Shown: positions 18,014 through 25,946 of the stretch, piece after piece
How the letters are laid out: each line of letters opens with the position of its first letter
Position numbering within the stretch: the stretch's first letter is position 1
NCBI GenBank assembly: GCA_030950365.1
Contig: JAUZRQ010000027.1
Location: forward strand, 85,293-117,292
Direction of reading: 5' to 3'
Length of the DNA: 32,000 bases
From: Candidatus Zhuqueibacterota bacterium
Lineage (GTDB): Bacteria > Zhuqueibacterota > Zhuqueibacteria > Zhuqueibacterales > Geothermadaptataceae
Translations under genes and position numbers: made by a program
Notes under the pieces: model-generated
Seen by the model: only the letters and a program-made list of their open reading frames with translations
Databases searched by the model: none
What the model was told of the DNA's origin: nothing

Positions 18014-20332
18014 TCAATCCACAGTCTTGCTATCACCCTGGCGAAATTCCAGTAGCCGAAGGGCCGCTTCCTTGCCGTGCTCGCCCACTTCCAGCACCGG
18101 ACCGACGCAGCTCGGACAGCCGGTCTCACATCGGCAATGGCGGATGACATCCGCAGCAGCTTTCAACAAATCATCGTGGCAGTCAAACAGTTTCTGTGAA
18201 AAACCCACGCCTCCAGGATAGCGTTCGTAAATGTACACCGTAGGCAGATCTGCAAACGGGCTGCGGACCATAGGCAGGGTGATGATGTCGCCCGGATCGG
18301 CCATGATGAAAATGGGCGCGACGTGGCCGAGCACATTGGCCGCGGCCTTGAGCGCATCGCCCAGCTCATCCTGCGAAAGCTGTAACACTTCACGGATGTC
18401 CGCATCCAGCTCCCACCAGTAAGCCGACGTCTGCAGCTCCATTTCGGGAAGTTCAATGGGGCCCCAACCGATGTTTTCATGCGTGCGGAATCGGATTTTC
18501 TTGTACATGGTCGGAACGGTGGTGACGCTGACCTCGCCATGTGCCTTGCCCCCCCCCGGAACATCTTCATGCTGAAACACATCCAGCACTTTCAGGCTGG
18601 ACTTGATCTGGGCGTCGGTGTAATAGTCGGATTCTACGCGGTGCACATAGGCCTTTTTTCGTAGCCAGTCCAACCGATCCACGTGATACGTTTCAGTACC
18701 GTGCATGTAGATGGCATCCTGATGCACATAGAGGGGAGCGCTGGCCAGATCGATCTCGCCGATGACCCGTTCTTCGCCTGTACGATCAATGATGACCACG
18801 TTTTCGGTGCTGGCGCTGCGCAGGGATACCGCCTCGGCGGGGTAGGTCTCGGCCATCCAGTGCCATTTGCCATCGGCGAAGTGCAGCACGCCTTTTTCCT
18901 CCAGGTATTCGAGAATTTCCTGAGTGGCATCCACGACGAAATCACCGTAGCCGAATTTTTCATTTTCTACAAATGGCAGTTCGAACGCGGCGCATTTGAT
19001 GTGGCTCATCATGATCAGCAGATTGTTGGGGTCAATCATGGCCGATTCCGGAGCCCGTCCGAAAAAGAAATCCGGATGGTTGATGATGTACTGATCCAGC
19101 GGTGAAGAGGAGGCCACCAGCACGGCGACCGAAGTTTCGGTCTTGCGCCCTGCGCGGCCTGCCTGCTGCCAGGCACTGGCGATGGTGCCCGGGTAGCCGC
19201 TCAGCACGCACGCCTGCAACTGCCCGATGTCGATGCCCAGTTCCAAGGCGTTGGTGCTGACCACCCCCAGTAGTTCTCCGGCTCGCAATCCCTTTTCGAT
19301 TTCCCGGCGCTCGCCGGGCAAATAACCGCCGCGGTAGCCCTTGACGCGGCCCCGCAGTTTTGCATTGCGACGCACGGCCTCCTGCAGATATTTGCTCAGC
19401 AGCTCCACGCGGTTGCGCGAACGTGCAAAAACGATGGTTTGTACGCCTGCATTCAGAAAGCGCTGGGCAATTTTCTGGCTTTCCTTGACGCTGCTGGCAC
19501 GGATGCCCAGTTCCATATTCACCACAGGCGGGTTATAGAAAATGAAGTGTTTCTCGCCGCGTGGCGCGCCGTTGTCATCCACCAGTTCGACCGGCGCTTC
19601 GATCAGTTTTTCAGCCAGCTCTCTGGGATTGGCCACCGTGGCGCTGCAGCAGATGAACTGCGGCTTGCTGCCGTAAAAATCGCACACGCGCCGCAAACGC
19701 CGTAGGACGTTAGCCAGATGGCTGCCGAACACCCCGCGGTAATGGTGTATTTCGTCGATGACGATGTAATTCAGGTTCTCGAATAGTTTGATCCAGAGCG
19801 TGTGGTGAGGAAGAATGCCCTGATGCAGCATATCCGGATTGGTGACCACGATGTGTCCGACGGTGCGGATGGCTTTGCGCGCGGACTGTGGCGTGTCGCC
19901 GTCGAAGGTGAAGACCTTGATGTCGCAGCCCATGTCCGTTACAATTTCGTGCACCTCGTGCATCTGGTCCTGCGACAGTGCTTTGGTTGGGAACAGATAC
20001 AGCGCGCGGCTTTCGGGTTGCGTTAGAATGCGGTTGAGCACCGGGATGTTGTAACACAGGGTTTTGCCAGACGCGGTGGGGGTGACCACTACCACGTTTT
20101 TGCCGGACAGCGTGTGCTCGATGGCCTGCGACTGATGCGAATAGAGCTGCCGGATGCCGCGTTTTTCCAGCGCCTGCCGCAGCTCCGGCTGCATGTTGGC
20201 GGGAAACGGGCCATAGCGTGCGGGCCGAGCCGCCATGTGCTCCCAGTGTGTAACATTTCGCATAAACGCCGGATCGCGGCGCAGCGCATCGAGAATATCG
20301 GGCAATTCGATGTTGGGTTTCAGAACGGACAT
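18014..20332 (-). CDS. DEAD/DEAH-box helicase with C-terminal DUF1998-type Cys4 domain (YprA/MrfA-like DNA-repair helicase)
   Basis: Motif I 'TPTASGKTLCYN', motif II 'VIDEIHHYRG', motif VI 'QQAGRAGR', C-terminal 'CRCETGCPSCV'. The likely start is 'MSVLKPN' at 20332 rather than the tracked 20383. Confidence 0.88.
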   Translation of the reverse strand: MSVLKPNIELPDILDALRRDPAFMRNVTHWEHMAARPARYGPFPANMQPELRQALEKRGIRQLYSHQSQAIEHTLSGKNVVVVTPTASGKTLCYNIPVLNRILTQPESRALYLFPTKALSQDQMHEVHEIVTDMGCDIKVFTFDGDTPQSARKAIRTVGHIVVTNPDMLHQGILPHHTLWIKLFENLNYIVIDEIHHYRGVFGSHLANVLRRLRRVCDFYGSKPQFICCSATVANPRELAEKLIEAPVELVDDNGAPRGEKHFIFYNPPVVNMELGIRASSVKESQKIAQRFLNAGVQTIVFARSRNRVELLSKYLQEAVRRNAKLRGRVKGYRGGYLPGERREIEKGLRAGELLGVVSTNALELGIDIGQLQACVLSGYPGTIASAWQQAGRAGRKTETSVAVLVASSSPLDQYIINHPDFFFGRAPESAMIDPNNLLIMMSHIKCAAFELPFVENEKFGYGDFVVDATQEILEYLEEKGVLHFADGKWHWMAETYPAEAVSLRSASTENVVIIDRTGEERVIGEIDLASAPLYVHQDAIYMHGTETYHVDRLDWLRKKAYVHRVESDYYTDAQIKSSLKVLDVFQHEDVPGGGKAHGEVSVTTVPTMYKKIRFRTHENIGWGPIELPEMELQTSAYWWELDADIREVLQLSQDELGDALKAAANVLGHVAPIFIMADPGDIITLPMVRSPFADLPTVYIYERYPGGVGFSQKLFDCHDDLLKAAADVIRHCRCETGCPSCVGPVLEVGEHGKEAALRLLEFRQGDSKTVD

Positions 20333-20426
20333 GGGATTTCCTGTGCAGATTTTGTTGGCAAAATATAGCCAATCTACCTGCATGGGGCAAGGGGTAAGTT
20401 ACCTATTTGCAATTCGCCGCGATTCC

Positions 20427-20492
20427 CACAAGCTTGAAGCTTGTGCTACAGTGGCGCAAGCATCCATGCTTGCGTTGCGGCCGCAGGCCGCA
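20427..20492. repeat. Modular GC-rich hairpin repeat, copy 2 (module A 20427-20450, module B 20451-20492)
   Basis: Matches the reverse complement of copy 1 modules (22/24 and 41/42). Hairpins: cacaagc/gcttgtg, cgcaagcat/atgcttgcg, tgcggcc/ggccgca. Confidence 0.85.
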
Positions 20493-20766
20493 ATCGACAG
20501 GCGGCACATCGACGTCAAAGCCCCAGTTCAGGGGGGATGAACAGTGCATGGACAGTAGCAGAAGCCATGTTAGATCTTGACTCCCACAATCTGGAATCTT
20601 ATGTGAGCTTTATAAATTCGCTATCAAGAAAACTCACAAATTAGCCGATCAGTTTGTTGTGATATCCACTATGAGCATGAAAAAACCTTGAGCAAACCAT
20701 ACTGGCTCAGAATGATGAGTCTGGCTGAAAACGCAAACCACAACTCACCGGAAGCAAGGGAATAGT

Positions 20767-22590
20767 ATGCAATTTGGGTTCAGGACGACGGCACGACACC
20801 TCTTCATCCCCGTATTGACTTTCGCGCTCAGCTTGCCATTTGCCGGGCTCAGCCAGGAAATGGCTCAGCTTAGCCGTATCGAAGAGCTGGAAAAGTCCAT
20901 GGAGGCGAACCTCACCTGGAATTTGGAAAACGCTCTCCTGATGTATTACCCCGAAAACAAATTCGTCGTCAAAGCCAATGTGGAGCTCGTGCCCGTCAAA
21001 GTACAAAACGAGCTGCCGAAGCTGCCGGAAGCGCTGTTGAATCGCGAAGTCAACCATTTGCCGGGGCTCCCGTTTCTTCCGGACGCCAATACGCCGCAGA
21101 GCGCCAACCCCGAGGTGCAGTCCTCGCTGGCGCGCCAGGTAAAAGAACAGCGGTTGGCCCTGAAGCGAGCCTGGGTGAACGTGCTGCTGGATGAAAATTT
21201 CACCGACAGCGATGTGCGCTTCATCCGCCGGCTGGTAGCGCTGACTGCAGATCTCGATCCGCGGCGCGGCGATCAGGTCAAAGTGGAACGGATGGCCTTT
21301 CCGCTGCAGGAAGTACCTGTGGAAGAGCGGACTCTGGCGGAGGAGCCTTCCGTGAAACCCGAAACCACACCGACCAATGCTAAAGCTTCATCCTCGTGGC
21401 TGCCCTGGGCGATTTTGGCCGGCGCATTGCTCCTGTTTTTGCTCCTGTTTGTGTGGAGCATGCGCAAGCTCGTCAGAGCACTGAGCGATGGCTTGAGACC
21501 GCTGCAGCATTTGCATATGCCGCATCCCGCGGTGAAGCCGACTTCAGCAGCAGCCGCCGAAGTCGTGCAGCAGTTCAAAGAAGAGAAGCAGGATGAACAG
21601 GTGCAAAAACTCAAGTCCGAGGTTATCGATGCCATAGTCGGCACACCGGCCATGGCCGCCCGGCTGTTTCAAACCTGGATTCAACACCACGGGGATCGCG
21701 GCTATGAAGAGGTGGCACTCCTCATGCTGGCCACCTCGCGATCGCTGATCGACCTGCTGGCGCCGTATCTAGGACCGGAGGCCGCCGGCAACGTACAGTT
21801 GAAAATGGATCAGCTGACGCAGGAGCAGCTCGAACAGCAGCAGGAGGCCGTGCTGGAGCGCTTTGATCGCGAGCTGCGCCATTACGCCCTGCGCGTGCGC
21901 GCCAGGCAGGAGGAGGAAGACGCGCTGGCCTTCCTCTACAAAATGTCCGACGATCAGTTGTTGCACCTGATCAAGCCGCTGAAAAAAGGCATCAAAGCGA
22001 TTGTGCTGGCACAGTTGCGGCCCGAGAAGGCAGCCAAAATACTGCGCACCTTCGATGCGGAGACCCGCCGCGGCGTTCTGGCCGCGATGGGCAATATTCA
22101 AAACATCCCGGCGGATGTGTACCAGCACATCGCGCGGCAACTGGCCGGCCGGGCGCAGAAACTGGAGCACATGCGCTTCGTGAAGGCCGATGGCGTCGAA
22201 GCCCTCGTCGAGGTGCTGGATCAGCTCGATGAACAGACGCAAATCGATACGCTGCAGCATCTGCAAACGCAGGATGTGGAGTTGGCCAAACGCGTGCGTT
22301 CGCGCTTTCTCACCTTTGACGATCTGCTGGATATGCCGGAAGACAAACTGCGCGATCTGGCCATTCAGGTGGACCGCGAACTTCTGGCCAAGTCCCTGAC
22401 TACTGTGGACGAGGCCGCGGCCGAAAAGATCATTCGGGCGCTGCCCGAGAAACTGGCCGAAATGGTGCGCGCCAGCCTCGAAACCCTGCATGATGTACCC
22501 GAGGCTGAGGTTGTGCAGGCACGCCGCGAATTGCTGCGCACCGCACGCGATCTGTTTCAAAAAAGCGAAACCAATCTGAAAGATGAGTAG
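20767..22590 (+). CDS. FliF-like ring-building periplasmic domain + TM + full-length FliG-like cytoplasmic domain (fusion-type rotor protein)
   Basis: 607 aa. N-terminal signal/TM segment. aa 35-180 show an alpha-beta-beta-alpha-beta ring-building-motif pattern as in FliF/SctJ. TM at aa 211-230. aa 310-600 align by eye to FliG N, M and C domains ('RPEKAAKILRTFDAETRRGVLAAM', 'FLTFDDLLDMPEDKLRDL', 'EKLAEMVRASLE...VPEAEVVQARRELL'). Confidence 0.7.
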   Translation: MQFGFRTTARHLFIPVLTFALSLPFAGLSQEMAQLSRIEELEKSMEANLTWNLENALLMYYPENKFVVKANVELVPVKVQNELPKLPEALLNREVNHLPGLPFLPDANTPQSANPEVQSSLARQVKEQRLALKRAWVNVLLDENFTDSDVRFIRRLVALTADLDPRRGDQVKVERMAFPLQEVPVEERTLAEEPSVKPETTPTNAKASSSWLPWAILAGALLLFLLLFVWSMRKLVRALSDGLRPLQHLHMPHPAVKPTSAAAAEVVQQFKEEKQDEQVQKLKSEVIDAIVGTPAMAARLFQTWIQHHGDRGYEEVALLMLATSRSLIDLLAPYLGPEAAGNVQLKMDQLTQEQLEQQQEAVLERFDRELRHYALRVRARQEEEDALAFLYKMSDDQLLHLIKPLKKGIKAIVLAQLRPEKAAKILRTFDAETRRGVLAAMGNIQNIPADVYQHIARQLAGRAQKLEHMRFVKADGVEALVEVLDQLDEQTQIDTLQHLQTQDVELAKRVRSRFLTFDDLLDMPEDKLRDLAIQVDRELLAKSLTTVDEAAAEKIIRALPEKLAEMVRASLETLHDVPEAEVVQARRELLRTARDLFQKSETNLKDE

Positions 22591-22593
22591 GCG

Positions 22594-23733
22594 ATGGCGA
22601 AAATGAAAGCAAAATGGACGTGGCCGTTCATCGGCCTCTGGCTGGTATTTGGGACGTTTGCCGTGCGGGGGCAAACGCCCGAGCAATTGGACCGAAATGC
22701 CGTGATACTCGGGCTGATGGAAGACCTGCTGGAAAAAGTGCAACCCGCCATTCAGGCAATCGATCCGGAACTAAAGCGCATTGCGCTGTACCGGCTCACG
22801 GTGCAGGGCAGGGGTTTGACACCACCGCTGCGGGATCACTTCGAAAACCGGCTGATTGAAACCCTGCAAACCCTGGATCATCCCCGTGTGGTGTCGCTGC
22901 CCAAATTCAACAACCTGCGTATCACCTCGACCGACAGCTCGTTCATGATCATCAACGCGCTACCGACCCCGGATGAGCTCTGGCGGGTGGGCCGGCGGTT
23001 GCGCGTGGATGCCTTTTTGGAAGGCAAACTGTCCTATCTGCCCGGCAACGGCCTGATTCTCGACTTGCGCCTCAACCGTACCGGGACGAATGAAGTGCTA
23101 TGGGCGGAATCGTTCGAGGCCTATGAGAAGCCGCTCGAGCCGCTACCCAAAAATCCGTTCCAGGTCAGCTTCAACATGGGCGTGGAAACCTTCCCGGTGG
23201 ATATCGACAAGGCCTCGCGTTCATTGCTGCGGCAGGATTTTCAGGATCAAATTTATCATTACAGCTTTTACCTTGGTTTTCGCCAGAACCTGTGGGAAGC
23301 CTCGAAATTCCGGTATGAATTTCAGGTCGGGGCCTCGTTGCTTTCCGAGGGCATTAAACTGGATAGCACCTACTTTGAAGAGGATGCGTTCTACGGTCAA
23401 AAAAGCGACAAAGCTTCCTCATTGCCCATCGCTTATTTCATCCGGTCGCTGTTAGCGATCAAACTGATTGAAAATGAGGGCAATGTTGGCGGCGATTGGC
23501 TGTCGCTGACCCTCGGTTTCGCACGCTATTTCGCCAAAAACATGCCCGATTTCAACACGATTTCTATCGGGTTACGGTCGGATATCAGTCCGCATTTTTC
23601 GCTGTCCTCGGGGTTCTCGCTGGCGTTCGGCCAGGAGTTCGAATCGGTGCCGGTTTCATCGACCGGCCAGCCTATTCGGATCAAAATTTCCGGCATTTCC
23701 ATGAACATCTTTTTCTTGCAATACACGTTCTAA
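22594..23733 (+). CDS. Secreted protein: periplasmic alpha/beta domain (CsgG/LpoB/FlgO-like pattern) plus putative C-terminal outer-membrane beta-barrel
   Basis: 379 aa. Signal peptide 'WPFIGLWLVFGTFAVRGQ'. Pattern 'RIALYRL...VGRRLRVDAFLEGKLSYL...LILDLRLNRTGTNEVLWAESF'. The C-terminal half has alternating hydrophobic strands and ends '...FFLQYTF' (terminal Phe, OMP signature). Confidence 0.6.
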   Translation: MAKMKAKWTWPFIGLWLVFGTFAVRGQTPEQLDRNAVILGLMEDLLEKVQPAIQAIDPELKRIALYRLTVQGRGLTPPLRDHFENRLIETLQTLDHPRVVSLPKFNNLRITSTDSSFMIINALPTPDELWRVGRRLRVDAFLEGKLSYLPGNGLILDLRLNRTGTNEVLWAESFEAYEKPLEPLPKNPFQVSFNMGVETFPVDIDKASRSLLRQDFQDQIYHYSFYLGFRQNLWEASKFRYEFQVGASLLSEGIKLDSTYFEEDAFYGQKSDKASSLPIAYFIRSLLAIKLIENEGNVGGDWLSLTLGFARYFAKNMPDFNTISIGLRSDISPHFSLSSGFSLAFGQEFESVPVSSTGQPIRIKISGISMNIFFLQYTF

Positions 23734-24467
23734 TGCCTAATGCAATGACCATGACTCAACTCAGTGAAAGAGCGATGATGAGACGATCCATTTCCAAAAG
23801 CCGTTTTCTCGCAGGCATTGTAGCTGGCGCTGTGCTGGCCGGCATGGGCTGCAGCAGCAGCGCTAGAAAGGAGATTCGCAAGGAGCCGGGCACGCTGCTA
23901 CCGGCGTTGACGATAACCGACTCCCTGAAAGCCAAAGGCGGCGAGGTGGTAACTCAGCTCAAGGGCAAAGATGAATCGTTCAAAAAGGTCATCACCTATC
24001 CGTATCTGACGATCCGCTTTAAGCAGGAAGATACCGAGGTAGAGATGGTCCTCGACCCTATGAGCACGAACCTGGTGCTGGATTTGAAACGGTCCTCCAG
24101 ATGGGAATGGGAAGTGCTCGAGGGCGATTCGGCGCTGACGCGCAACCGCATGCCGACACCGCCCGACAGCCTGAACGATAAAATTTACCCCCTCAAAGAC
24201 GAATCCCTACAGGACCTGACCGATGAGATCGTACGCGATATCAACCTGGCGCAGCAACTGTTTTATCAGCGGCGCTACGAGGAAGCGTTGCGCATCTTGA
24301 ACCAATCGCTGCAAAAAAAGCCCACGGCAGCGGCTTATGCGCTGGGCGGTTCGATTTATTTTGTCAATGGCGATATTGACCAGGCGGTTCGTGCCTGGGA
24401 AAACGCGTTGAAAATCGATCCCGGTCTGGATGATGTGAAACGACTGGTGGCCCGTTACAAAAAATAG
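23733..24467 (+). CDS. TPR-repeat lipoprotein
   Basis: The TAATG start overlaps the previous stop; alternative starts at 23775/23778 give the signal 'MMRRSISKSRFLAGIVAGAVLAGMGC' with a lipobox Cys. C-terminal TPR region 'YQRRYEEALRILNQSLQKKPTAAAYALGGSIYFVNGDIDQAVRAWENALKIDP'. The tracked ORF start at 23496 overlaps the upstream gene and is rejected. Confidence 0.7.
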   Translation: MPNAMTMTQLSERAMMRRSISKSRFLAGIVAGAVLAGMGCSSSARKEIRKEPGTLLPALTITDSLKAKGGEVVTQLKGKDESFKKVITYPYLTIRFKQEDTEVEMVLDPMSTNLVLDLKRSSRWEWEVLEGDSALTRNRMPTPPDSLNDKIYPLKDESLQDLTDEIVRDINLAQQLFYQRRYEEALRILNQSLQKKPTAAAYALGGSIYFVNGDIDQAVRAWENALKIDPGLDDVKRLVARYKK

Positions 24468-24482
24468 CAGTGAGGTGAATCG

Positions 24483-25301
24483 GTGGGTACGTTTATCGGC
24501 ATATTACTGGGTGCGGCGTTGATTGCCATTGGCATTGCCTCGGGACAGGCGCCGGCGAATGTTTTCTGGAATTGGCAGGGCATGGCCATTGTATTGGGGG
24601 GCACCATCGCCTCCACGCTCATTTCCTATCCGTTGCCCGAAGTGTTTCGCGGATTTCGTTCCTTCTTCGTGATTTTCCGTTCCGGTGCGCACAATCTCGT
24701 GGATGCGGTGAATCGGCTGGTCTCGGCGACTCGTATTTTTCACCGCGAAGGCGTCGCCGCGACGGCACAGCATGCCGCTGGCTGGAAAGATTTGTGGATA
24801 TTCAAAGACGGTTTGCAACTTATGATCAATGGCTATACGCGCGAAGAAACGAAAGAAATTTTAGAAGACCAGGTGCGCTGGCAGCTCAGCCGCGAGCACA
24901 AGCAGGAAGGCCTGTTCAACCGCATGGCGAAAATTGCGCCGGCGTTTGGTATGGTGGGCACCCTCATCGGGCTCATCAATATGCTGATCACGCTTCAGGC
25001 GCATCCGCAGCAGGTGGGAGAGGGGCTGGCCATTGCGCTTACCACCACATTCTACGGCCTGATTCTCGCCAATCTGCTGTTTTCGCCGATCGCAGCGAAA
25101 ATCCGCGAGCGGGCGGAAAACAATGTGTTGCTGCAGACCATGCAGATTGAAACGATTTTGATGATGTACGAAAAGCGCAATTATGTGTTTGTGCGTGAAA
25201 AGCTGGCGGCGTATTTAAATGCCGGACTGAGAAAGAAAGTTCAGCAAACGGCTGGTGTTCAGGCCGTATCCGCACCCCCTAATGTTAAAAAGGCAGCGTG
25301 A
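24483..25301 (+). CDS. motA: MotA/PomA-type stator channel protein (MotA/TolQ/ExbB family)
   Basis: 272 aa, four TM segments with a long TM2-TM3 cytoplasmic loop. 'IAPAFGMVGTLIGLI' and 'ALTTTFYGLILANLLFSPIA' match the MotA TM3/TM4 signatures. Confidence 0.85.
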   Translation: MGTFIGILLGAALIAIGIASGQAPANVFWNWQGMAIVLGGTIASTLISYPLPEVFRGFRSFFVIFRSGAHNLVDAVNRLVSATRIFHREGVAATAQHAAGWKDLWIFKDGLQLMINGYTREETKEILEDQVRWQLSREHKQEGLFNRMAKIAPAFGMVGTLIGLINMLITLQAHPQQVGEGLAIALTTTFYGLILANLLFSPIAAKIRERAENNVLLQTMQIETILMMYEKRNYVFVREKLAAYLNAGLRKKVQQTAGVQAVSAPPNVKKAA

Positions 25302-25304
25302 TAA

Positions 25305-25946
25305 ATGGAAATCGGATTACCCAAATATCTTCGGCGGACCGAGCGCGAGGTGGAAAGCGAGCCCTGGTTGATGTCGTATTCCGACATGACCACCCTGCTG
25401 CTGGCGTTTTTCGTACTGTTTTTTGCCATCTCGCAGCTCGATCAGACCAAGTTCGAAATGATCATGGAGTATTTCAGCAAGACAGAAACCATGCCCCTGC
25501 ATCAGCTTGAGAAAAAATTCAAGCAGTTCATTGAAGAACATCGATTACAGGATAGTATGGAGGCGGAGCTAACACCGAAAGGTCTGTTGGTGCATTTTCA
25601 GGATAAAATTCTGTTCGATTCGGGCAAGGCCGAACTCAAGCCCGAAGCCTATCCAGTGCTCGATGCCCTGGCGCAACTGCTGCGTCAGCCCGAAGTGCAG
25701 CAACGCAAAATCGAGGTGGAAGGCCACACCGATACCGTGCCCATCAGCAAAAACGCCGATTATCCGTCGAACTGGGAACTGTCGGCGGCTCGCGCTACGC
25801 GCGTGATTCGCTACCTCATCGAGCAAAACATCGCTCCGAACCGGTTTGTGGCCGTGGGCTATGCGGATACGCGGCTGCGCGTTCCAGAGAGCGACGGCCA
25901 CCGCGGACTGCCGGTGAATCGCCGCGTGAGCTTGTTGATCAAGTAG
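25305..25946 (+). CDS. motB: MotB-type stator protein with OmpA-like peptidoglycan-binding domain
   Basis: 213 aa. 'WLMSYSDMTTLLLAFFVLFF' carries the conserved channel Asp. OmpA-like region 'FDSGKAEL...VEGHTDTVPI...NWELSAARATRV...NRRVSLLI'. Confidence 0.88.
   Translation: MEIGLPKYLRRTEREVESEPWLMSYSDMTTLLLAFFVLFFAISQLDQTKFEMIMEYFSKTETMPLHQLEKKFKQFIEEHRLQDSMEAELTPKGLLVHFQDKILFDSGKAELKPEAYPVLDALAQLLRQPEVQQRKIEVEGHTDTVPISKNADYPSNWELSAARATRVIRYLIEQNIAPNRFVAVGYADTRLRVPESDGHRGLPVNRRVSLLIK

Follow-up and report, generated by a model that had tools for sequence, protein, structure and literature searches.

We analysed a window of 32,000 nucleotides (nt) from a Candidatus Zhuqueibacterota bacterium (contig JAUZRQ010000027.1, positions 85,293 to 117,292), in which a five-gene operon with gaps of 3-15 nt opens with a gene for a fusion of a FliF-type ring-building domain and FliG, here called P0001. 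The gene occupies 20767-22590 of the window (all coordinates refer to the window, and features lie on the + strand unless stated otherwise), and it is followed in order by genes for a 379-amino-acid (aa) outer-membrane (OM) protein, a tetratricopeptide repeat (TPR) lipoprotein, MotA and MotB. In the list of open reading frames (ORFs) and their translations, the P0001 frame is intact with exact boundaries and yields a product of 607 aa. This product consists of five parts: an N-terminal signal or anchor segment, a split domain of the third ring-building-motif type (RBM3), one transmembrane (TM) helix, a helical linker domain, and the middle (M) and C-terminal (C) domains of FliG.

The domain assignment was made with Pfam, NCBIfam, phmmer against solved chains, hhalign, an AlphaFold2 (AF2) model and Foldseek against the PDB, and Pfam, phmmer, AF2 and Foldseek agree on it. 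The best solved sequence match to P0001 by phmmer was a chain of the engineered Vibrio FliF-FliG fusion 8z4d (E = 1e-15), which covered the end of RBM3 with TM2 as well as FliG M and C; P0001 aa 145-243 paired with Vibrio FliF 434-522, the end of RBM3 plus TM2, and aa 396-601 paired with the FliG part of the same fusion. The AF2 model was built as a monomer from 38 homologues, with a mean predicted local distance difference test score (pLDDT) of 73 and a predicted template modelling score (pTM) of 0.29. When this model was searched with Foldseek, full-length FliG stood at the top of the list (9n49_G and 8umx_B; 318-321 columns), followed by FliG M-C fragments and then by a long series of FliF S-ring/RBM3 structures (8z5v_A, 8z4d_1, 7d84_A and 6sd3; target TM-score 0.5-0.6). 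The NCBIfam FliG equivalog TIGR00207 covered aa 383-601 but failed its cut-off (90.6 bits against 226.7). The fusion forms a large family, with 83 representatives at 50% clustering and E < 1e-30, and with more than 140 representatives of about 600 aa that share the same architecture; FliG_C was found in 70/70 tested members and FliG_M in 69/70. Across the 38 close homologues, which are 40-91% identical to P0001, 70 columns are invariant. Only a few homologues belong to named taxa, which were KSB1, Calditrichota, Elusimicrobiota and one Pseudomonadota metagenome-assembled genome (MAG).

The cytoplasmic part of P0001 contains two FliG domains that were recognized by profile and by fold. The middle domain (aa 388-466; 21928-22164; helical from 388 to 464 in the AF2 model) matched Pfam FliG_M (PF14841) over aa 397-466 with 39.6 bits against a cut-off of 25, and the C-terminal domain (aa 476-606; 22192-22584) matched FliG_C (PF01706) over aa 498-599 with 65.1 bits against 23.3. 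With hhalign, P0001 aa 387-597 aligned to residues 120-330 only of canonical FliG at 98% probability. Foldseek paired the C-terminal domain with 1qc7_B (target TM-score 0.85, root-mean-square deviation (rmsd) 1.9 Å) and 8ucs_H (0.84, rmsd 1.4 Å), and the modelled fold is almost superposable on FliG_C bound to MotAB. An MgtE_N identity for the C-terminal region (PF03448) was rejected, since its match stayed below the cut-off (23.5 bits against 25.9) and overlapped the FliG-like region. Ahead of the M domain lies a helical domain that is possibly FliG_N-like (aa 261-382; 21547-21912; all-helical in the AF2 model with pLDDT 80-91). Foldseek included this region when it aligned P0001 to a full-length FliG chain of 319 residues over 318 columns, and hhalign of aa 255-386 matched FliG_N weakly at the expected position (E = 0.003; 10% probability), while the Pfam FliG_N match fell on aa 411-485, which is the M domain and not the region ahead of it. 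A FliG_N-like identity for aa 261-382 is thus plausible but unproven. Within the M domain, the FliM-binding EHPQ position is replaced: alignment to Thermotoga maritima FliG places LKKG on EHPQ, as part of a KPLKxG motif (21973-21990) in which K403, L405, K406 and G408 are invariant among the 38 homologues. With this motif replaced, a switch complex would be lacking, and no gene for FliM or FliN is among the five genes of the operon.

The N-terminal part of P0001 is a reduced FliF. A hydrophobic segment at aa 11-29 defines an N-terminal signal peptide or membrane anchor (aa 1-31; 20767-20859), and in the consensus of the 38 homologues it closes with Ala-Gln, resembling a signal-peptidase site, so that it may be a cleaved signal peptide instead of TM1. 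The following domain (aa 35-180; 20869-21306) was assigned from the AF2 model, PF08345, phmmer, Foldseek and invariant columns. Pfam YscJ_FliF_C (PF08345) matched aa 116-178 over the final 66 profile positions (82-147) with 30.7 bits against a cut-off of 23.8, and the order of elements in the model is that of an RBM: helix 26-60, strand 66-76, an insert at 77-118, strand 130-141, helix 147-160 and strand 170-175. A proline-rich insert (aa 77-127) splits the domain where FliF has its beta-collar and carries the motifs LPxL and LPGLPxxP, invariant in the 38 homologues (LPGLP at 21058-21072); an invariant RGD in the domain lies at 21265-21273. No Pfam match to RBM1/RBM2 (SctJ-like, PF01514) was found in P0001, and its approximately 150 periplasmic residues make one RBM in the model. 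By profile and model the ring module is thus specifically RBM3-like. The TM helix (aa 211-230; 21397-21456) was recognized from a hydrophobic segment at aa 211-229 with a hydropathy of 2.44 and corresponds to a model helix at 212-241, and more than 55 distant representatives of the family are likewise hydrophobic there. Because Arg and Lys residues stand on its C-terminal side, the N-terminal 180 residues are predicted to be periplasmic and the FliG part cytoplasmic. A first-pass annotation of this locus had described one polypeptide joining a short FliF-like module to FliG, with a single RBM-like unit in aa 35-180, TM2 at aa 211-230 and a C-terminal region of FliG rather than MgtE-N type, and each of these points was borne out; the AF2 model and Foldseek place an RBM fold in aa 35-180, specifically RBM3. 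Its further statement that all three FliG domains are present holds for M and C by Pfam, hhalign and Foldseek and is unproven for N.

The torque helix of the FliG C-terminal domain spans aa 559-573 (22441-22485) and was located by phmmer, hhalign and homologue columns; the segment LPEKLAEMVRASLE corresponds to aa 559-572 (22441-22482). Alignments by phmmer to solved FliG and by hhalign to canonical FliG concur on the register, in which K562 falls on R281 and A569-S570 fall on D288-D289, in E. coli FliG numbering. In addition, P578, just downstream of the helix, falls on the R297 position and is a third lost charge, so that only the first of the four equivalents (K562, A569, S570, P578) retains its charge. 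Seven residues of this region (L559, P560, L563, E565, V567, A569 and S570) are invariant in the 38 homologues. The invariance of A569-S570 across this set indicates that the substitution is a selected family trait and neither decay nor chance. Among 138 representatives of the wider family, Pro560 and Arg/Lys562 are near-universal, while position 569 is Ser in 57, Asp in 23 and Ala in 13, and position 570 is Glu in 54, Ser in 23 and Gly in 13; the Ala-Ser pair is limited to the clade of P0001.

The operon encodes its own stator with the expected hallmarks intact. MotA (272 aa; 24483-25301; PF01618) is of the flagellar type, with four TM helices and a large cytoplasmic loop; alignments to solved chains gave C. 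sporogenes MotA (6ysf, 8ucs), other MotA/PomA structures including 8bri, as its best solved relatives (E = 1e-34 to 1e-25), and MotP scored 9e-46 against 0.001 for TolQ. MotB (213 aa; 25305-25946; PF13677 and PF00691) has a plug, a TM helix and an OmpA-like peptidoglycan-binding domain, and its conserved channel Asp27 (25383) lies in an SYSDM motif. The MotA loop that reads A-R-R-E-G-x-x-x-L-E in the solved relatives reads F-H-R-E-G-V-A-A-T-A in the cassette MotA, which places His87 (followed by Arg88) on the R90 position and Ala95 on the E98 position (24741-24767). In flagellar motors the contact pairs between MotA and FliG are R90/D288-D289 and E98/R281 (PMC12505986). Among 13 close relatives the R90 position is Q or H and the E98 position is A, V, L or M. 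In this clade the classical salt bridges are gone on both partners and replaced by invariant small or hydrophobic residues, which argues that the contact was rewired and not lost.

To compare the two sides of this interface, rotor helices were paired with MotA loops from 24 loci, representing nine lineages. The Ala-Ser clade (13 distinct loci) has A,S at rotor positions 569/570 together with H/Q at the MotA R90 position and A/V/L/M at the E98 position; two Ser-Ser loci (L037, L038) have S,S with N and E; L023 has S,G with Q and Q; and L033 has A,G with Q and E. Acidic rotor residues occur at L024 (E,E with R and S), L026 (S,E with K and S), L027 (D,D with T, followed by K two residues on, and E) and L030 (D,E with I, again with K two residues on, and E). 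The flagellar pair of the window genome itself has E,E on the rotor, R at both the R281 and R297 positions, and R and E on MotA. Thus, MotA carries K/R at the R90 position or at most two residues off only where the rotor has D/E at 569/570, and the window clade is the most de-charged variant of the nine on rotor and stator side alike. Pairwise identities of the fusion and of MotA were also correlated (r = 0.91, 19 loci). The charge covariation between rotor and MotA loop, proposed as a check by the first-pass annotation, is suggestive and falls short of statistical proof. The annotation's reading that the acidic pair of the torque helix is replaced by Ala-Ser agrees with HMMER and hhalign, which place A569-S570 there and no acidic residues, and its proposal of a modified rotor-stator interface is strengthened by the cassette MotA, where H87 stands for R90 and A95 for E98.

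The window genome also encodes a true flagellum. A full flagellar cluster with FliF, FliG, FliM, MotA, FlhA and flagellins was found on contig C1, while the cassette lies on C57; the cassette is therefore a second rotor-stator pair in the genome. In a phylum sample of 151 genomes, the fusion was present in 22 and FlhA in 56; FlhA was found in 14/22 fusion carriers and was not found in the other 8. Three genomes of the same class, G013, G022 and G074 (99, 97 and 94% complete), had no FlhA, no flagellin and no FliG_C beyond the fusion, and they share the Ala-Ser helix and the MotA loop with the window cassette. The presence of the fusion in these genomes, where no flagellar genes were found, indicates that the cassette is independent of the flagellum. 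In the window genome, the de-charged interface would have the effect that neither the cassette nor the true flagellar motor engages parts of the other. Insulation from a coexisting flagellum was rejected as a sufficient explanation for the Ala-Ser helix, since G013, G022 and G074 keep the same helix. A further genome of the class, G050, carried the fusion together with an ORF for a FliG of canonical length (358 aa; C111:34832-35149), and FlhA and flagellin were not found in it, which points to partial loss of a flagellar system or to a gap in the assembly.

The other two proteins of the operon are predicted to act at the outer membrane. The 379-aa OM partner (22594-23733) has a signal peptide, a TolB-N/LpoB-like alpha/beta domain and a small beta-barrel that ends in YTF. 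It had no match in Pfam, even at E up to 1, but in its AF2 model (pLDDT 78) Foldseek matched the N-terminal half to TolB and the LpoB C-terminal domain, and the C-terminal half, 8-10-stranded in the model, to the small OM barrels OmpA, Ail, OmpX and NspA. No name for this pairing of a TolB-N/LpoB-like domain with an OM barrel was found in the libraries searched. The TPR lipoprotein (240 aa; 23745-24467) was recognized by TPR matches in Pfam and by a lipobox-like ...AGMGC ending at Cys36. Homologues of the OM partner occupy the same operon position in 13 loci, and the identical five-gene order was found beside fusions of only 23-26% identity at L023, L026, L027, L030 (an Elusimicrobiota MAG) and L033, where both the OM and the TPR proteins are homologous to those of the window. 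Homologues of the TPR protein adjoin the fusion even at distant loci that lack an adjacent MotAB (L029, L031 and L032), and at L029 and L031 a small OM barrel is encoded beside the fusion as well. The torque helix reads LPERKAEMLxF[DE] at L029 and L031, and the fusion at L032 is of a further distant type.

A TARA ocean contig (L024:1-12893) showed another arrangement: downstream of a fusion of 22% identity come genes for a short TPR protein, for MotA and for a MotB of 549 aa that includes a SPOR domain. Upstream of that fusion are genes of the DUF4900/DUF4402 type and a gene for a protein of 996 aa with a C-terminus similar to the TPR lipoprotein, and this neighbourhood suggests a link to a surface-fibre locus. 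In the window, the divergent neighbour of the operon (18014-20383, - strand) encodes a DEAH-box helicase with an MrfA zinc-binding domain (TIGR03817, 716 bits, below the cut-off of 874); as far as synteny at other loci indicates, it is unrelated to the cassette. No sigma-70-like site was found on the + strand between this gene and the fusion (20390-20767). A weak candidate for a sigma-28-like promoter, TCAA-N16-GCCGATCA, lies at 20624-20651, 116 nt before the fusion begins. Elsewhere in this genome, a comparable -10 element stands 62 nt ahead of a flagellin gene (C1:56636; TTAA-N~15-TCCGATCA). The loose sigma-28-like pattern occurs 13 times in the genome against about 5 expected, with one occurrence within the flagellar cluster, and CCGATA was found at a similar distance upstream of the fusion in 2/8 close relatives only.

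The cassette resembles the flagellar motor core (FliF, FliG and MotA5B2 or PomA5B2) in its RBM3-type domain followed by a TM helix, in its FliG M and C domains with a near-superposable FliG_C, in the large loop of MotA, and in the plug, channel Asp and OmpA-like domain of MotB. It differs from that core in joining in one polypeptide what are two in the flagellum, in lacking RBM1/RBM2, FliM and FliN, and in having no export gate, rod, hook or filament genes. KPLKxG stands in place of EHPQ, Ala, Ser and Pro occupy D288, D289 and R297, and His and Ala occupy R90 and E98 of MotA. In addition, the cassette has OM barrel and TPR lipoprotein partners, and some of the genomes that carry it yielded no flagellar genes. 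A natural FliF-FliG fusion of different architecture is known from Chlamydiaceae (Bergeron, 2016; PMC4768692). Like P0001, that protein is a single polypeptide of flagellum-less bacteria with a signal sequence, a shortened RBM region, a TM helix and a cytoplasmic FliG-like part; however, at about 330 aa it has an RBM2-like unit, a second RBM-like unit and a FliG M-like region only, and it has no MotAB partner and is proposed to act with the injectisome (PMC4768692). P0001, in contrast, has RBM3 only, FliG M and C including the torque helix, and a stator of its own. Engineered FliF-FliG fusions of Salmonella and Vibrio (PDB 8z4d and 8z4g) share the covalent join, and the Vibrio fusion forms rings, but these join full-length FliF to full-length FliG (945 aa), keep the canonical RDD in the torque helix and are part of a complete flagellum. 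The Tol-Pal, ExbBD-TonB and GldLM (type IX secretion) systems likewise couple an ion-driven, stator-like inner-membrane unit to outer-membrane or periplasmic proteins, and the OM partner of the cassette contains a TolB-N-like domain. Unlike the cassette, these systems lack a rotor ring resembling FliG and use A subunits of the ExbB/TolQ/GldL type, whereas the MotA of the cassette is flagellar and the presumed target of its stator is a FliG_C ring. A literature search for a non-flagellar system with FliG-like and MotAB components gave no match, the nearest being the Chlamydia fusion and a 2025 survey.

We propose that P0001 is probably the rotor of a flagellum-independent envelope ring that is driven by MotAB through a rewired interface. 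The RBM3 domains would assemble into a membrane ring on which the FliG_C domains are arrayed as a ring; MotA would be turned by ions passing through MotA5B2, and the MotA cytoplasmic loops would push the torque helix. The ring would then rotate, or at minimum cycle conformationally, with no switch complex involved, and the two OM proteins, barrel and TPR lipoprotein, would take up the work or scaffold the stators. A fuller version, which we put forward only tentatively, is a stand-alone ion-driven rotary envelope machine, in which RBM3-FliG subunits form a homo-oligomeric ring that is turned by MotAB units of its own and works on the OM barrel and TPR lipoprotein, the contact having been re-coded in this clade from salt bridges to small or hydrophobic residues. 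A flagellated cell could then hold two insulated motors, and the machine could be derived from the flagellar core or ancestral to it. Several points weigh against a driven rotor. Both classical charge pairs are gone, so torque generation cannot be assumed, and a ring coupled to outer-membrane proteins could not turn freely. No MotAB gene adjoins the fusion at the distant loci L029, L031 (the Pseudomonadota MAG) and L032, where the stator may be encoded elsewhere or be unused. The covariation concerns nine related lineages and was scored with a tolerant position, and at the strict R90 position only three of the five acid-bearing lineages fit. The insert at aa 77-118 of the RBM3-like domain is disordered or unmodelled by AF2, and the sigma-28-like promoter could tie the operon to the flagellar regulon. 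Finally, ring formation, rotation, expression and output are inferred from genes and models.

The same loss of both torque charge pairs on rotor and stator would suit a static membrane platform, on which the FliG-like domain docks MotAB as a Tol/Ton-like force generator or as an ion-flux sensor acting on the OM barrel and TPR lipoprotein, or in which the ring serves as a sink or brake for stators. The TolB-N/LpoB-like domain of the OM partner recalls Tol-Pal, the operon encodes no axle or output part, and in some flagellar motors stators are scaffolded by TPR proteins, namely PflA and PflB. We nevertheless consider such a platform unlikely, since this MotA, with its large cytoplasmic loop, belongs to the flagellar type and is not ExbB/TolQ-like (compare the E-values for TolQ and MotP above), the FliG_C fold and torque helix are strongly constrained, the interface covaries with MotA as for a working contact, and RBM3 domains are ring-builders. 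The finding of the same Ala-Ser helix in genomes where no FlhA, flagellin or ordinary FliG was found makes it quite improbable that P0001 is an accessory or alternative rotor part of the true flagellum, such as a second MS/C-ring variant or an add-on under the flagellar regulon. That reading draws on the flagellated state of the window genome, on the TCAA-N16-GCCGATCA element with its counterpart before the flagellin gene, and on the FlhA found in 14 of the 22 fusion-bearing genomes; against it also stand the lack of RBM1/RBM2, which house the export gate, and of the FliM-binding motif, the location of cassette and flagellar cluster on different contigs, interface residues unlike those of the flagellar pair, and a promoter motif that is not kept in most relatives.

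We regard as highly improbable an inner-membrane ring of a secretion or channel apparatus, similar to SctJ/SctD or SpoIIIAG, with the FliG-like part as a cytoplasmic docking platform only: by the ORF list and Pfam the operon has no ATPase, export gate, secretin or substrate genes, the top fold matches are to FliF RBM3 and not to SctJ or SpoIIIAG, and the constant partnership with MotAB would be left unexplained. The insert after the first strand of the RBM in the AF2 model, which resembles SpoIIIAG and the FliF collar (PMC4768692), and the OM barrel gene adjoining the fusion are the observations that fit it. That the cassette is left over from a second flagellar system, in decay and without a function today, is barely credible, because its ORFs are intact in dozens of genomes, the 70 columns invariant in the 38 homologues include the substituted positions of the torque helix, and the operon is conserved across phyla; the loss of the charged torque residues and the FliM-binding motif and the shortening of the periplasmic region relative to FliF are what such decay would offer in explanation.

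If P0001 is indeed the rotor of a MotAB-driven envelope ring, the torque core of the flagellum (ring, FliG and stator) would exist as a module of its own in several phyla, among them lineages that yielded no flagellar genes, and this would bear on the origin or the re-use of the flagellar motor. It would also offer a candidate explanation for the retention of rotor proteins in some non-motile species, a question raised in print (10.1101/2024.12.05.626484). A single-chain rotor of 607 aa with its own stator would be far simpler than a whole flagellum for structural and single-molecule work. For the rotor-stator interface, the window clade amounts to a natural experiment, with both classical charge pairs missing from rotor and stator and yet invariant surfaces, and could reveal the true requirements for torque transmission.

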